Made by a program: the position numbers and the translations under genes
IMG/VR virus record: IMGVR_UViG_3300013232_000048
DNA from: a virus
Strand: one strand, 5' to 3'
Length of the DNA: 53,878 nucleotides
Part shown: piece by piece, positions 28,150 through 49,653 of the stretch
Position numbering within the stretch: the stretch's first letter is position 1
How the letters are laid out: every line of letters starts with the position of its first letter
Notes under the pieces: model-generated
Database searches by the model: none
What the model was told of the DNA's origin: nothing
The model's input: only the letters and a program-made list of their open reading frames with translations

Positions 28150-28223
28150 GCGGATGTAGCACAATGGCAGTGCAGGACGTTGCCAACGTTCATACGAGGG
28201 TTCGATTCCCTTCATCCGCTCCA
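28150..28223 (+). tRNA. tRNA-Gly(GCC)
   Basis: Acceptor GCGGATG/CATCCGC. Anticodon stem GGACG/CGTTC with loop TTGCCAA. T-arm GAGGG-TTCGATT-CCCTT. CCA encoded. Confidence 0.7.
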
Positions 28224-28236
28224 ATTTGATAGATGT

Positions 28237-28293
28237 GCGGGCGTGGCGCATATTCCAAAGCGTCTGAAGGATTAAGTTCCTATTCCCGCTCCA
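28237..28293 (+). pseudogene. truncated tRNA-like fragment
   Basis: It ends TTCCCGCTCCA-ATTT like the neighbouring tRNAs but is only about 57 nt long, and no full cloverleaf could be drawn. Confidence 0.3.
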
Positions 28294-28315
28294 ATTTAGT
28301 TGTTCTTTGTAATTT

Positions 28316-28389
28316 GCACTGTTGACATATTGGCCGTGTTTCAGCCTTCCAAGCTGACCAAGCGGGTTCGATTCCCGCACAGTGCTCCA
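28316..28389 (+). tRNA. tRNA-Gly(UCC)
   Basis: Acceptor GCACTGT/ACAGTGC. Anticodon stem TCAGC/GCTGA with loop CTTCCAA. T-arm GCGGG-TTCGATT-CCCGC. Confidence 0.7.
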
Positions 28390-28493
28390 AGTTTGGAAAT
28401 AGAACAGAAGTCGGTAGAAAGTACCGTGAGAGTCGTGGAGAATGGGCGTAACTCTGATCAAGTTGTGCTAAGGTGATCCATTATTTCCAAAAT

Positions 28494-28569
28494 GCGATAC
28501 TGGTGTTCAATGGCAGCATGAGACTCTTCCAAAGTCCCGGTACGGGTTCGACTCCCGTGTATCGCTCCA
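28494..28569 (+). tRNA. tRNA, probable Gly(UCC) second copy (anticodon loop CTTCCAA)
   Basis: Acceptor GCGATAC/GTATCGC. T-arm ACGGG-TTCGACT-CCCGT. The anticodon stem is 4 bp plus a mismatch. Confidence 0.55.
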
Positions 28570-28586
28570 GATTTGTTCTTTGAAAT

Positions 28587-28660
28587 GCCGAATTGATGTA
28601 ATGGTAGCCTATTACTTTGGTAAAGTAAATGTTCGGGTTCGATTCCCGGATTCGGCTCCA
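28587..28660 (+). tRNA. tRNA-Thr(GGU) (GUA/Tyr is a less likely alternative)
   Basis: Acceptor GCCGAAT/ATTCGGC. Anticodon stem TTACT/AGTAA with loop TTGGTAA (U33, A37). T-arm TCGGG-TTCGATT-CCCGG. Confidence 0.6.
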
Positions 28661-28668
28661 AATTTTAT

Positions 28669-29226
28669 TTGTTTTTTGATACTCCTAACACTATTTATAG
28701 GTATAGAGTGATAGGATACTGTATGAAATGTGAAATTTGTAAGAATGAGTTAACAAAACGTTATCAAAAACGTTTTTGCAGCCAACTGTGTGCAAGTAAA
28801 GCGAGAATAGTTGTAAGATATTGTAAACAATGCAATGTTCAATTGCAACCTAACACAAAGCAAAGAACATATTGTAGCAAAGTGTGTCAACAAGCTTTTC
28901 AGAGGAAAAGTATTCATAAACAAATTGAAAGCGGAGGTTATGAGTGCGTATATTCTGGAAATAAATTTCTTCGCAACTATCTCATAGAAATTCGAGGAGA
29001 AAAATGCGAAGAGTGTGGATTGTCAGAATGGATTGGAAATAAAATTCCATTGACGGTTCATCATATTGATGGTAATGCGGAAAATAATGTACCATCCAAT
29101 ATGCAATTGATGTGTTGGAATTGTCATGCATTGACTGATAATTATGGGAGAAAAAATAAAATTTCTGCCCGTGATTATAGATATAAAAATGCCCCTATAG
29201 CTCATGGTGAGCCGGTGGTCTTATAA
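28669..29226 (+). CDS. HNH homing endonuclease with N-terminal zinc-ribbon repeats
   Basis: CEICKNE...FCSQLCASKA...YCKQC...YCSKVCQQAF followed by CEECG...HHIDGN...N...LMCWNCH. Its 3' end overlaps the 5' part of the next tRNA. Confidence 0.8.
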   Translation: MFFDTPNTIYRYRVIGYCMKCEICKNELTKRYQKRFCSQLCASKARIVVRYCKQCNVQLQPNTKQRTYCSKVCQQAFQRKSIHKQIESGGYECVYSGNKFLRNYLIEIRGEKCEECGLSEWIGNKIPLTVHHIDGNAENNVPSNMQLMCWNCHALTDNYGRKNKISARDYRYKNAPIAHGEPVVL

Positions 29227-29283
29227 GCCACTTAATCGCTAGATTGGCGTAAGGTGAAGGTTCGATTCCTTCTAGGGGTACCA
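29191..29283 (+). tRNA. class II (93-nt) tRNA with apparent anticodon UAU; identity unclear
   Basis: Acceptor GCCCCTA/TAGGGGT, D-arm TAGCTCATGGTGAGC, anticodon stem GTGGT/GCCAC with loop CTTATAA, a 24-nt variable region, and T-arm GAAGG-TTCGATT-CCTTC. Confidence 0.5.
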
Positions 29284-29342
29284 GATTTTGTATAACACCG
29301 TCATTCGGTGAGGAAGAACAGAGGATGACGGAGAAATGCAGA

Positions 29343-29366
29343 GAAGAAGAAGAAGAAGAAGAAGAA
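29343..29366. repeat. (GAA)8 microsatellite
   Basis: gaagaagaagaagaagaagaagaa lies between two tRNA genes. Confidence 0.9.
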
Positions 29367-29419
29367 GTAGAGGATACATCGGTGGCGGTGTTATACTATT
29401 TTAGAGTTCTTTTTTGAAT

Positions 29420-47523: not shown

Positions 47524-47565
47524 TCCTTGACTTTTTCATCCACTTCAGTTATAGTTATAGACAAT

Positions 47566-47656
47566 GGCAGATTAACTGGGCGAGGCTCAGGATCGACTTG
47601 AAATCGAATCGTTCCCCTAAGACGGGAATGGGAAGCGTGATCTCAGTCTGCCGCCA
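47566..47656 (+). tRNA. tRNA-Ser(UGA), class II, non-canonical T-loop AGCGTGA
   Basis: Acceptor GGCAGAT/GTCTGCC. Anticodon arm ATCGA-CTTGAAA-TCGAA. Variable arm TCCC-CTAAGAC-GGGA. T-arm TGGGA-AGCGTGA-TCTCA. It is a paralog of the tRNA at 47880. Confidence 0.55.
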
Positions 47657-47779
47657 ATTTGTGATTGATAGAGGCTGGTCAAGAGTCTTCTCACACGAGA
47701 AGAAAGGTTGTAACCAATTTGTCAATCGGGCGTGTGGTCAACGCTTGGGGCAGGTCCAAATCTGCATCAATCACTTTAT

Positions 47780-47854
47780 GCGAGTATAGCTCAGTGGAAG
47801 AGCAGCACATTTACACTGTGAAGGCCGGAGGTTCAAATCCTTCTACTCGCACCA
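47780..47854 (+). tRNA. tRNA-Val(UAC)
   Basis: Acceptor GCGAGTA/TACTCGC. D-arm TAGCTCAGTGGAAGAGC. Anticodon arm GCACA-TTTACAC-TGTGA. T-arm GGAGG-TTCAAAT-CCTTC. Confidence 0.65.
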
Positions 47855-47879
47855 AATTTGTGTTATAGTTATAAACAAT

Positions 47880-47970
47880 GGTAGGTTAACTGGGCGAGGC
47901 TCAGGACACGGTGCTAACGTGATCGCACCCCTAAGACGGGTGTGGGAGGCAGGATCTCAACCTACCGCCA
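47880..47970 (+). tRNA. tRNA-Ser(GCU), class II, non-canonical T-loop GGCAGGA
   Basis: Acceptor GGTAGGT/ACCTACC. Anticodon arm CACG-GTGCTAA-CGTG. Same variable arm as the tRNA at 47566. T-arm TGGGA-GGCAGGA-TCTCA. Confidence 0.55.
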
Positions 47971-48311
47971 TTTTATACGGGATTGGTAAAATAGTATCAC
48001 ATTTCTCTCACACAGAAGAGTCGTCGGAGCGTAACCGGCATCCCGTACCAGATTATGTTACTCGCCCTTTGTATTTATTTAGGTGTTGGAATTGTTTGGT
48101 ATATCTATACCATGATTGCTATGATGGACGTTTTTGATTTCAAATCATGGAAGGAAATGACAACTGCCTTTGTAATGAATGTCTTTTTCTGGCCACTGAT
48201 CGCAGTAATGTACTACAGTAAACAACACAAATAAATGGAGGATGCTATGACAATGCTAAACGCCCTAAATACAGAGCGACGAAACGGAAGGAGTTCCTAG
48301 AGAACTGGGAG

Positions 48312-48674
48312 TTGTACATCAACTTCCCGAAGATTTTTACAGTACCACCGTTGGAATACGATCCCAATGGTGAAGAAGGAAAATACTGTTTTCTTTGCTA
48401 TGAAAATGGTATAAGTGTGCCGACAAAAGAGCCAAAGCTGGTTCAAAAAGCGATGGAAGGAAAAGAGTCGGTCAACCTTCAAATCAAGATTTGGTCCGAA
48501 GGAATGTGGGACAAGCAGTTAGGATGTCCTTTATTCTTTCCTCAAGAGATTCGTGAGTATTGTCAGGGGTATCCCGACTGGGTTTACAAGTCGGTGATAA
48601 ACCAGACCAAGAAAAGAGTGCTTGATGACATAGGGTTCATCCCTACGTGGCTGAAGGTCGGAGACATTCCATAA
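48312..48674 (+). CDS. hypothetical protein
   Basis: 120-aa ORF. Confidence 0.45.
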   Translation: MYINFPKIFTVPPLEYDPNGEEGKYCFLCYENGISVPTKEPKLVQKAMEGKESVNLQIKIWSEGMWDKQLGCPLFFPQEIREYCQGYPDWVYKSVINQTKKRVLDDIGFIPTWLKVGDIP

Positions 48675-48745
48675 TGTCGTTCCTCACTGCCTTATGGCAT
48701 GTGACAAGGTTTCTGTTCCCGTGAACCGGCTTAATCACGGGATGC

Positions 48746-48819
48746 GGGCGGTTGGTATAGTGGAAACACGGCACACTGACACTGTGCAATCATTGGTTCA
48801 ATTCCAATACTGCCCACCA
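48746..48819 (+). tRNA. tRNA-Val(GAC)
   Basis: Acceptor GGGCGGT/ACTGCCC. Anticodon arm GCACA-CTGACAC-TGTGC. T-arm ATTGG-TTCAATT-CCAAT. Confidence 0.65.
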
Positions 48820-48841
48820 ATTTAACAAAAGGAAAAAAGTT

Positions 48842-49327
48842 ATGGGAAGTCTAAGAACAGCACAACGTAAACTCAAGGAAAAGAATGTCTGGATCGCACA
48901 AGAAACGGATCGCAAAAAAGTCAAGTTCCTCCAAATGCTCGTTAAAGAAAAAGTCAAGCAGGATGCTGAATTCGCTAAAGACGTTCTTAAAGCTGTTGGG
49001 GAAAACCTCCCAAAAGAAATCAAAGAAGCTGCCGAAGCGACCATTGCGAAAGAAAATGCAGTCTCCGAAAAAATCGAAGAAATGAAGCAAGAATATGGAA
49101 CAGTGTTAGAATCTCCATCAGACATTGATCCCATTGTAACGGATGCTGAACTTCAAGTGGTTGCTGACAAAGCCGTTGAAGAAACAATCGAAGAAGCCGA
49201 TAAGTTTGGAGAAAAACTGTGGCAACCAACTTCTACTGAAAAGGCAGCGAAACTGGATTGTGAACCATATGGAAATCCAGACTCACTTCCATTGGAGTAT
49301 GATAAAGAAAAACATAAACTTCCTTGA
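48842..49327 (+). CDS. K/E-rich hypothetical protein
   Basis: 161 aa, highly charged and predicted alpha-helical. Confidence 0.5.
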   Translation: MGSLRTAQRKLKEKNVWIAQETDRKKVKFLQMLVKEKVKQDAEFAKDVLKAVGENLPKEIKEAAEATIAKENAVSEKIEEMKQEYGTVLESPSDIDPIVTDAELQVVADKAVEETIEEADKFGEKLWQPTSTEKAAKLDCEPYGNPDSLPLEYDKEKHKLP

Positions 49328-49563
49328 TATTTATGAATGATCGAAAAGATGAAAAAATAATTGAGAAAGCTCTGAAAATTGTTACTGCTATTCGCCAACA
49401 TCAAGGCGGAGTTGGTAATGATTTCATTCCAGAGAAAAATATCACAGAAACAATTTCCTGTCCTATATGCAATGTGGGACAGATGACTTATACTATCTCC
49501 AATTATAATGGACATAGATCGGCACAATGTTCTGAAAAATGTTTCGGAGCATATTACGAATGA
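49324..49563 (+). CDS. small zinc-ribbon protein
   Basis: CPICNVGQ...CSEKCF. Confidence 0.4.
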   Translation: MIFMNDRKDEKIIEKALKIVTAIRQHQGGVGNDFIPEKNITETISCPICNVGQMTYTISNYNGHRSAQCSEKCFGAYYE

Positions 49564-49576
49564 TATTTATAGATCT

Positions 49577-49653
49577 CCGAGAGTGGCTCAGCTTGGTAGA
49601 GCGTCTGGTTTGGGACCAGAAAGTCGCAGGTTCAAATCCTGTCTCTCGGACCA
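49577..49653 (+). tRNA. tRNA-Pro(UGG), fully canonical
   Basis: C1-G72 acceptor CCGAGAG/CTCTCGG. D-arm TGGCTCAGCTTGGTAGAGC. Anticodon arm TCTGG-TTTGGGA-CCAGA. T-arm GCAGG-TTCAAAT-CCTGT. Confidence 0.75.

Follow-up and report, generated by a model that had tools for sequence, protein, structure and literature searches.

How many of the transfer RNA (tRNA)-like units crowded onto one strand of a viral contig are genuine tRNA genes, and what do the homing endonuclease genes lying among them contribute? These questions are raised by IMG/VR virus record IMGVR_UViG_3300013232_000048, a stretch of 53,878 nt which was analysed in full (the window; all positions follow whole-window numbering). An earlier note on this DNA had described about 50 tRNA genes between positions 28150 and 49653, interleaved with at least eight HNH and one GIY-YIG homing endonuclease genes. 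Our analysis indicates that the region 23.1-53.4 kb is very likely an array of tRNA genes belonging to a very large phage or phage-like element, into which HNH homing endonuclease genes have moved. The units missed by default tRNA callers appear mostly not to be junk; they form a coherent class in which a G at T-loop position 55 covaries with a D-loop devoid of the usual GG.

When all methods were combined, 54 tRNA and tRNA-like units were obtained in the window (23149-53401), 50 of them inside 28150-49653 and all on the + strand. ARAGORN with default settings called 33 tRNAs, all on the + strand (31 inside 28150-49653), and Rfam gave 36 tRNA matches at gathering score (about 35 inside), to which its permissive mode added three units scoring at or above that threshold, at 32687, 28074 and 32829. 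Only about 60-70% of the units are recovered by default callers. With the relaxed option -ps90, ARAGORN found 42 genes; since none of them falls in positions 1-22000, ahead of the array, the extra calls are not background. A structure-only scan, requiring a 7-bp acceptor stem, a 5-bp T stem with a 7-nt loop, a 5-bp anticodon stem with a 7-nt loop, a D stem and CCA while leaving loop sequences unconstrained, returned 37 cloverleafs with a CCA end from the + strand of the interval 23-53 kb. Outside this interval there was one on the + strand, and the - strand gave five weak ones. Three genes overlooked by both ARAGORN and Rfam were caught in this way (Thr-UGU at 29708, Thr-CGU at 29847 and Asp at 39968).

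A covariance model, R1, was trained on nine non-canonical sequences from the structure scan. In this training set 95.8% of cells were paired, against 36-46% with slid partners, a percentage which is partly circular since the sequences had been picked by the structure scan; covariation between orthologs is not circular, and 20 of 21 pairs covaried. At E<0.01, R1 matched 44 sites on the + strand and none on the - strand. The figure of about 50 tRNA genes thus stands for 28150-49653 only if non-canonical and degenerate units are counted: automated annotation stops at the numbers given above for ARAGORN and Rfam, and it is the structure scan and R1 that raise the count to 50. Some 44 of these 50 units look intact and functional, the other six appearing degenerate, interrupted or aberrant. 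Over 23.1-53.4 kb, about 47 units are plausibly functional tRNAs.

The genes are spaced by 1-150 nt, with small open reading frames (ORFs) between them. All 20 amino acids are represented. Comparison of anticodons with codon usage under standard wobble shows that almost every sense codon used in the window ORFs can be read; coverage inside the window is incomplete only for Ala and for part of Ser. No suppressor anticodon (CUA, UCA or UUA) was found among ARAGORN-called tRNAs, default or relaxed. Met and Ala, which had been reported as not found and possibly hidden among tRNA-like genes, are indeed missing from 28150-49653. They are not hidden inside it, but stand just outside: a CAU gene at 28074-28147, 3 nt upstream of 28150, and tRNA-Ala(CGC) at 53328-53401. 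The array reaches at least this last gene and probably continues past the window end.

The canonical elbow (G18 and G19 in the D-loop, U54, U55 and C56 in the T-loop) is absent from 15 of the 54 units; most others with a resolvable T-loop have U55 and C56. In these 15 units (hereafter G55 units) position 55 is G instead of U, and T-loops read GGCAGNA, AGCRUNA or UGCRANU as against the usual UUCRANY. Thirteen of them carry AG in place of G18-G19, whereas the D arm of the other two, both Ser, is a closed hairpin. The class keeps C56 and G19, and its positions 54/58 are G/G, A/U or U/A. A set of 66 strict cloverleafs, drawn from the window and from its relatives, comprised 51 having U55 with GG and 15 having G55 without GG, with no mixed case (Fisher 4e-15). 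All G55 units possess U33, a purine at position 37, a discriminator base and CCA. ARAGORN with default settings calls only three of the 15, and seven have no Rfam match.

The first G55 gene is the CAU gene (Met, or Ile-lysidine type; T-loop GGCAGAA, D-loop AATAGTA; Rfam 35.7 bits in permissive mode, structure scan, R1 79 bits). It is followed by tRNA-Thr(UGU) (29708-29781; structure scan, R1 78 bits) and tRNA-Thr(CGU) (29847-29920; structure scan, R1), which, together with tRNA-Asp(GUC) (39968-40044; structure scan, R1), were missed by Rfam and by ARAGORN both in default and -ps90 modes. tRNA-Pro(UGG) (32687-32760; T-loop AGCAUAA) was found by Rfam (40.6 bits, permissive), the structure scan and R1, as were tRNA-Ile(GAU) (33000-33073; Rfam 53 bits), missed by ARAGORN, and tRNA-Glu(CUC) (33837-33911; Rfam 44.7 bits). 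tRNA-Tyr(GUA) (34637-34722; UGCAAGU), tRNA-Phe(GAA) (38333-38407; AGCGUUA) and the tRNA-Ala(CGC) mentioned above (UGCGACU) were detected by ARAGORN, Rfam and the structure scan. Further members are tRNA-His(GUG) (37270-37344; AGCGUAA; ARAGORN -ps90, R1 51.6 bits) and tRNA-Glu(UUC) (38724-38798; UGCAAUA; Rfam 41 bits, R1 49 bits). Toward the 3' part lie tRNA-Ser(UGA) (47566-47656; AGCGUGA), whose D arm is a closed 6-bp hairpin and which was called by ARAGORN -ps80 only, with R1 at 15.5 bits, its paralog tRNA-Ser(GCU) (47880-47970; GGCAGGA; relaxed ARAGORN, self-BLAST) and tRNA-Val(CAC) (47977-48050; relaxed ARAGORN, structure scan, R1).

Relatives of the window allowed these genes to be followed in other elements. 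A pattern derived from the odd 85-nt Leu genes described below retrieved L254, an 85.5-kb IMG/VR contig colinear with window positions 23.4-39.1 kb. The other relatives were retrieved via the 851-aa ORF (41668-44223) that resembles the major vault protein (MVP); they include L003, an IMG/VR contig whose MVP-like ORF has 75% amino-acid identity, and several JGI metagenome contigs (L005-L007, L009 and L010) in which tRNAs surround the MVP-like gene. G55 orthologs are present in L254 for Met (93%), Thr-UGU (100%), Thr-CGU (92%), Glu-CUC (92%) and Ile (84%). Val-CAC is found with a G55 elbow and compensatory stem changes in L003 (84%) and L006, and a syntenic counterpart of Ser(UGA) 47566 occurs in L003, L005 and L006.

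Such aberrant elbows could mean that the G55 and other non-canonical units are not translational: they might be pseudogenes, decoys for host tRNA-cleaving nucleases or non-ribosomal aminoacyl carriers, in which case the real set would comprise some 31-35 genes. Absence of U54/U55, accompanied in 13 of 15 units by that of G18, and the poor recovery by ARAGORN and Rfam are in line with this proposal, and a precedent exists in a non-proteinogenic tRNA-Gly of Staphylococcus aureus, which lacks G18, G19, U55 and C56 and binds EF-Tu weakly (PMC4574755). The pattern of change within the G55 class speaks for the opposite. Covariation is seen in its cloverleaf stems, and its orthologs have been conserved in three related elements. 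G19 and C56 persist, and position 18 changes together with 55, which is what a maintained elbow would be expected to show; U33, purine 37, discriminator base and CCA are found in all members. Six anticodons are present in both elbow versions, so that one version could be spare, but eight are supplied by G55 genes only (Met CAU, Thr UGU and CGU, Glu CUC, Val CAC, Phe, Ser UGA and GCU), and the variant covers 13 amino-acid specificities. The same elbow is moreover found in a conserved tRNA-His(GUG) of SAR11 bacteria, which is probably an ordinary tRNA-His. A non-translational role therefore seems unlikely to us, and the G55 units appear to be working tRNAs, not pseudogenes.

Is this elbow restricted to the lineage of the window? 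We scanned for it with one narrow pattern covering the GGCAGNA subclass, so that the resulting counts are lower bounds. The pattern had four matches in the window against 0.00 expected by chance. It occurred at no fewer than 120 loci in viral contigs, where 103 of the 122 matches listed formed good cloverleafs (mostly Gly-UCC or Gln-UUG), and at no fewer than 120 in bacterial and archaeal assemblies, with 101 good cloverleafs among the 128 matches listed. The association between the two loops was also seen in unselected neighbours of the matches listed: at viral loci, 215 had U55 with GG, 10 U55 without GG, 7 G55 with GG and 75 G55 without GG (p 1e-51), and at genome loci the corresponding numbers were 129, 2, 31 and 329 (p 3e-85).

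In SAR11, one conserved tRNA-His(GUG) with A73 and a G55 elbow was found in at least eight genomes (loci including L154, L155, L160, L182, L190, L196 and L249). Prosthecobacter has G55 tRNA-His, Gly-UCC and Val-UAC in dense tRNA arrays, Chthoniobacter flavus a G55 tRNA-Gln(UUG) in an array, and Saccharibacteria G55 tRNA-Ile (UAU and GAU), likewise in an array. In the published genome of an isolate, Pelagibacter phage Mosig (L255, MT647606.1, 7774-7869), a G55 tRNA-Gly(UCC) was missed, being listed as a hypothetical protein of 31 aa, Mosig_000011. The class thus has a wide distribution, which takes in viral contigs as well as some bacterial tRNA arrays, and too few of its members are annotated. 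As a separate observation, most CCA-ended cloverleafs in the Prosthecobacter/Verrucomicrobiales arrays (L162, L183, L201, L205 and L208) are of G55 type and only some of them are called by ARAGORN. The idea that G55 might be a hallmark of bacterial long tRNA arrays (L-arrays) was rejected, the tRNAs of the Anabaena pCC7120delta array all being canonical, with only TTCRA T-loops.

Non-standard elbows occur in tRNA-Pyl and in mitochondrial tRNAs, where the G18/U55 pair and the T54-Psi55 signature are lost. The Staphylococcus tRNA-Gly mentioned above is the nearest precedent for the elbow described here. In that tRNA G18, G19, U55 and C56 are lost together, whereas the G55 class of the window keeps G19 and C56, exchanges G18/U55 jointly for A18/G55 and serves 13 specificities instead of being one special-purpose tRNA. 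We found no published description of a G55/A18 elbow in the literature searched, whose coverage was incomplete. Tentatively, the A18/G55 elbow might represent an undescribed, functionally distinct and maintained tRNA architecture, spread by phages and mobile arrays and under-called by standard tools. If this were true, G55 tRNAs would be blind to T-loop readers (TrmA, TruB, T-loop-cutting toxins) and the phage would gain a defence-proof or independently regulated translation set. Should the class be functional, the numbers of tRNAs and the codon coverage estimated for phages and mobile arrays would be too low, and the elbow would become a candidate for the feature that makes tRNAs resistant to, or independent of, host factors acting on the T-loop.

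The second part of the question concerns the endonuclease genes. Six HNH genes are intact. The first, 25502-26242 (+; Pfam HNH 2.3e-5, NCBIfam IscB HNH region 2e-7), lies upstream of the main tRNA block. Within the array are 28669-29226 (+; PHROG 1271 5e-18, Pfam HNH 5e-4), the 3' end of which overlaps tRNA 29191, 30955-31401 (+; Pfam HNH 2.8e-5), 34054-34635 between tRNA-Ile and tRNA-Tyr (+; PHROG 2255 7e-26) and 37744-38325 between tRNA-Arg and tRNA-Phe (+; Pfam HNH_3 3e-6), a helix-turn-helix (HTH) plus HNH_3 gene. The sixth, 49696-50079 (+; PHROG 2255 8e-21), combines HTH and HNH and lies downstream of tRNA-Pro. A seventh HNH reading frame, 36070-36528 (+), is 46% identical to 49696 (E 4e-21) and is interrupted by an in-frame TGA at 36106, with no start codon after it. 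Recoding of this TGA was considered and rejected: as no suppressor tRNA was found, it is read as the mark of a pseudogene.

These seven genes agree with the list in the earlier note, which also named 26187 and, as probable, 53458. The former (26187-26504, +) is better described as an HlpB-like HNH nuclease-like protein (NCBIfam NF058586 5e-13, full length, below the curated cut-off). The latter, a Zn-ribbon ORF truncated by the window end (53458-53878, +), was not confirmed as HNH: its L003 ortholog matches endonuclease/resolvase-like PHROGs more strongly. As for the GIY-YIG nuclease, the domain is real (26506-26769, +; Pfam PF01541 1.4e-16). The gene lies upstream of 28150 and of the main tRNA blocks and homing is not evident, the 87-aa protein consisting of a catalytic domain (residues 8-79) with no DNA-binding domain. 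Since the HlpB-like (66%) and GIY-YIG (56%) genes are conserved side by side in L254, they look like backbone rather than evident homing genes.

The HNH genes proper behave differently in the comparison with L254. Indel sizes were taken from tRNA coordinates; MAFFT global alignments of the HNH intervals against L254 misplace the downstream tRNA. The gap between Ile-GAU and Tyr is 105 nt without HNH in L254 and 646 nt with HNH 34054 in the window, that between Arg-UCG and Phe is 111 nt without HNH in L254 and 653 nt with HNH 37744 in the window, and conversely the Asp to Ile gap contains an HNH gene of its own in L254 as against 97 nt without HNH in the window. These three differences are exact presence or absence between conserved flanking tRNAs. 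Counterparts of HNH 28669 and of pseudogene 36070 were not found in L254 by tblastn, HNH 49696 is absent from L003, and at the site of HNH 30955 L254 carries a counterpart with 37% identity. Presence or absence between conserved flanking tRNAs being the classic signature of free-standing homing endonucleases, the HNH genes of the window can be regarded as mobile elements, and the comparison gives direct evidence that they move in and out of inter-tRNA gaps.

A plausible course of events is that free-standing HNH genes inserted repeatedly into inter-tRNA gaps as selfish passengers. Their products would cut the nuclease-free allele in co-infecting relatives, probably in a site-specific manner, and the gene would then be copied in by repair, which would drag neighbouring tRNA genes along. 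A special attachment of HNH genes to tRNA 5' ends was rejected: non-nuclease ORFs adjoin tRNAs as tightly (33691 to 33693 and 41470 to 41478, ORF 33248-33691 ending 1 nt before a tRNA).

Could the nucleases also be the engine that built the array? According to this proposal, also made in the earlier note, homing endonucleases duplicate and shuffle tRNA units by segmental amplification of the SegB type, giving rise to the paralog pairs. There is a real precedent, since SegB of T4/T6 was shown in 2026 to amplify a segment carrying tRNA-Tyr under Septu pressure (PMC13096335), and the mobility of HNH genes between the window and L254 would suit it as well. Its trace is nevertheless absent from the window sequence. 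Self-BLAST of the window gave only five short paralogous matches in the array, of 70-114 nt and 75-79% identity, extending no more than about 15 nt beyond the tRNA body: 23228/29420, 29708/29847, Arg 33693/45444, Arg 33693/44373 and 47548-47660/47862-47974. None includes or abuts an HNH gene, and neither segmental nor tandem segmental repeats were detected in the array by this search. The Thr-UGU/Thr-CGU tandem already exists in L254 and so predates the split from it, and the HNH proteins, being only 25-46% identical to each other, represent independent lineages that were not copied together with the tRNAs. We therefore consider amplification by the nucleases quite unlikely here. At the syntenic slots for Thr-GGU, Gly-UCC, Asp and Cys, the window and L254 have the same anticodon with different elbow types and stems. 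This in-place turnover suits gene conversion, and fits replacement by recombination which nucleases could stimulate.

On which kind of element does the array reside? Huge phages carry up to 67 tRNAs per genome, plus a transfer-messenger RNA (tmRNA) (Al-Shayeb et al. 2020, PMC7162821); as in the window, dozens of tRNAs are accompanied by a tmRNA on a single very large phage-like element, and those genomes were annotated by tRNAscan-SE only. The sequences of the window resemble no isolate phage: a megablast comparison of 28-50 kb with 50,697 phage records detected no relative, the sole match being 40 nt of a tRNA. In T4, the homing endonuclease SegB lies within the tRNA cluster (PMC2330249). Here too, free-standing homing endonucleases stand between tRNA genes and are polymorphic for presence between related elements. 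In contrast to T4 SegB, a GIY-YIG enzyme within its cluster, the array nucleases of the window are HNH proteins, its single GIY-YIG protein, the conserved catalytic domain of 87 aa, is encoded away from the main tRNA blocks, and segmental amplification is not seen.

Phage T4 has eight tRNAs, and the window about six times more; the tRNA region of phage T5 holds HNH nucleases. Both features, a large tRNA complement in a huge phage and homing endonucleases in a tRNA array, have been described before, and the present array offers a large and clean example of this known arrangement, with a near-complete decoding set on one element.

Bacterial L-arrays raise another possibility, namely that the window is a mobile L-array on a bacterial chromosome or megaplasmid and not a phage. 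They are horizontally spread, one-strand arrays with an HNH gene conserved alongside, reach 43 tRNAs in Verrucomicrobia, Bacteroidetes, Cyanobacteria and other phyla, and their likeness to phage arrangements has been remarked (Santamaria-Gomez et al. 2021, PMC8421152); tRNAs of the Anabaena L-array are charged in vivo. The G55 tRNAs in dense arrays of Prosthecobacter, Chthoniobacter and Saccharibacteria would agree with such an origin. The closest relatives of the window are, by contrast, IMG/VR viral contigs (32-125 kb), and the MVP-like gene ties it to the curated genomes of uncultured phages LR756501 (735 kb) and LR756500 (462 kb), although there no tRNAs surround this gene, which lies inside the array in the window. 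A tmRNA, a 3220-aa ORF, Dam and many HNH genes suit the content of huge phages. L-arrays are chromosomal or plasmid-borne, have at most 43 genes and are almost free of ORFs, unlike the window array with its many ORFs and 15 G55 tRNAs. We regard a bacterial L-array as very unlikely and prefer a phage or phage-like element.

Several points count against this preferred view. Genes that are hallmarks of phages (capsid, terminase, tail) were not found inside the window, so that the assignment depends on relatives from viral collections. HNH-tRNA adjacency alone is not nuclease-specific, given the non-nuclease ORFs equally close to tRNAs, and the units 38414, 38494, 39037, 36530, 39772 and 31912 may be dead.

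How would such an array be expressed? CCA is encoded in 51 of the 54 units and is followed by N0-2 TTT in 44 of these 51, compared with 6.8% of other CCA trinucleotides on the strand (p about 3e-44); [A/C/T]TTT follows directly in 34. The encoded CCA with an ATTT or CTTT trailer had been pointed out before, and the relatives show the CCA-ATTT form as well. At position -1, 43 of the 51 units have T, the two bases before it being A/T-rich. Two of the genes described below, Tyr 34731 (34811-34817) and Arg-CCU 45444 (45516-45522), display a doubled CCACCA before the TTT trailer.

A search for TTGACA-N16-18-TAnnnT yielded about a dozen promoter-like sites on the + strand, several with an extended -10 TG, including 27948, 28033, 30293, 30920, 40312, 44818, 50521 and 52744. 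One of them, at 28033-28061 (+; TTGACA-17-(TG)TAGAGT), lies just upstream of the first tRNA block, with a second one at 27948, and that at 30920-30948 (+; TTGACA-17-TATAGT, 11/12) lies ahead of HNH 30955. Sigma70-like sites suited to drive tRNAs are thus present, as the earlier note had proposed; overall enrichment of the pattern is modest (51 sites against 36 +/- 7 expected).

Bacterial RNase P favours U at -1, and A/U-rich sites after CCA suit RNase E-type release. As suggested by these motifs, several sigma70-like promoters would give rise to long precursor transcripts, in which each tRNA would lie between a conserved WAU, closing the leader, and an encoded CCA followed by AUUU. Host RNase P would make the 5' cut, and the 3' end would be released at a U-rich RNase E-type site and trimmed by exonucleases, CCA addition being unneeded. 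The resulting set could free translation of the A/T-rich genes of the element from the host tRNA pool, covering situations such as host tRNA decay, codon mismatch and tRNA-cleaving defences.

The units outside the G55 class are mostly ordinary. The array opens with a canonical tRNA-Leu(UAA) (23149-23225; ARAGORN, Rfam 58 bits). Both ARAGORN and Rfam found tRNA-Gly(GCC) (28150-28223), two tRNA-Gly(UCC) (28316-28389 and the second copy 28494-28569, with permissive Rfam at 28 bits and an R1 match), tRNA-Thr(GGU) (28587-28660), tRNA-Ile(GAU) with no encoded CCA (30125-30195; also structure scan), tRNA-Cys(GCA) (30198-30273), tRNA-Trp(CCA) (31511-31584), tRNA-His(GUG) with a canonical elbow (31726-31800), tRNA-Gln(UUG) with T-loop AUCGAUA (32520-32593; also structure scan), tRNA-Arg(ACG) (33693-33768), canonical tRNA-Ile(GAU) (33916-33990), canonical tRNA-Tyr(GUA) with a CCACCA 3' end (34731-34814) and tRNA-Asn(GUU) (35047-35120).

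The same two programs detected, further downstream, tRNA-Lys(UUU) (39221-39295), tRNA-Leu(GAG) (39423-39508), tRNA-Pro(GGG) (39690-39767), tRNA-Pro(CGG) (40853-40929), tRNA-Leu(UAG) (40937-41013), tRNA-Leu(CAG) (41478-41563), tRNA-Glu(UUC) (44292-44366), tRNA-Arg(UCU) (44373-44448), tRNA-Arg(CCU) with a CCACCA 3' end (45444-45519), tRNA-Val(UAC) (47780-47854), tRNA-Val(GAC) (48746-48819) and canonical tRNA-Pro(UGG) (49577-49653). Canonical tRNA-Asp(GUC) (32829-32902) was called by ARAGORN and permissive Rfam, and tRNA-Arg(UCG) (37603-37679) by ARAGORN and R1. A further tRNA-Val(UAC) (35785-35862; Rfam 37.9 bits, ARAGORN -ps90) has a weak acceptor stem and is 89% conserved in L254, and a possible tRNA-Lys(CUU) (31912-31988) is a weak call, made only by ARAGORN -ps90 (R1 10.9 bits).

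Some units depart from the standard fold in other ways. Two 85-nt genes resemble tRNA-Leu, one with UAA (23228-23312, +; Rfam 36.9 bits, ARAGORN -ps90, four-sequence ortholog alignment) and the other with CAA (29420-29504, +; ARAGORN -ps90, 77% identical to 23228 in self-BLAST). In this family the normal D arm is replaced by an invariant 5' block, GTGGATAAGGGAA..GGTACAACCG, the anticodon hairpin covaries and the variable-arm hairpin is absent. Orthologs of both are found in L254 at 3119-3203(-) and 6727-6811(-), so the family has been kept in two elements. A 93-nt tRNA with a UAU anticodon (29191-29283, +; ARAGORN, Rfam 45.6 bits) has a 24-nt variable arm, unusual for Ile; similarly, L254 carries an Asn(GUU) with a 22-nt variable arm (reverse-complement 13062-13157), atypical for such tRNAs. 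tRNA-Lys(UUU) 31417-31502 (+; ARAGORN, Rfam) has an enlarged D-loop and a 12-nt variable region, and its L254 ortholog is a normal 76-nt Lys.

A tRNA-Asn(GUU) at 36530-36675 (+; ARAGORN -i), beginning 1 nt past the stop of HNH pseudogene 36070, is interrupted at anticodon-loop position 34/35 by a strongly folded insert of 71 nt, which its L254 ortholog (reverse-complement 13166-13241) does not have. A group I intron was rejected, 71 nt being too short; the insert could be a small intron or a disruption. The 118-nt unit 39772-39889 (+; Rfam tRNA 42 bits, tmRNA 27 bits, sub-threshold) has normal acceptor, D and T arms, with about 65 nt where the anticodon arm and variable loop belong (about 43 extra), and it ends with ACCG followed by ATTT. 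Three units appear degenerate: 38414-38489 (+; R1 25.9 bits), with a good acceptor stem and CCA and poor anticodon and T arms, a Ser(GGA)-like unit without CCA (38494-38569, +; ARAGORN -ps90) and a 70-nt unit with a Thr-like acceptor stem (39037-39106, +; R1 32 bits).

Other genes accompany the array. The 851-aa homolog of the eukaryotic MVP (41668-44223, +; Pfam MVP_shoulder 1.6e-21, PDB MVP 1.5e-18), which has a Vault_3 and a shoulder domain, aligns colinearly with residues 465-835 of PDB MVP; it is a cargo gene inside the array and not part of tRNA function. Its conservation is 68-87% in relatives and 40% in LR756501, and in one further relative, L004, it is present with no tRNAs nearby. 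Viral MVPs have been reported once (bioRxiv 10.1101/2023.11.10.566534). No function was obtained from PHROGs, Pfam or NCBIfam for ORFs 33248, 35126(-), 44855, 45853 and 48842. Of the minus-strand ORFs in the array, 35126-35770 (214 aa, lipoprotein-like N-terminus, no family match) is the most convincing gene, and another long one, 31996-32442, has no family match either. For the 214-aa ORF, as for a 556-aa ORF and a 161-aa ORF at 27456, viral contigs yielded no relatives.

Accessory genes near the array encode an ADP-ribosylglycohydrolase-like protein (17108-18202), a DprA-like protein (20802-21425), a CxxCxxCC zinc/iron-chelating domain protein (26756-27082) and the Dam methyltransferase (50549-51028). 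The tmRNA (5381-5785, +), not called by ARAGORN, matches Rfam RF00023 over its full length with 102 bits. Directly downstream of it lies the 3220-aa ORF (5836-15498, +), with no NCBIfam match, and a TTGACA promoter-like site at 5339 precedes the tmRNA.

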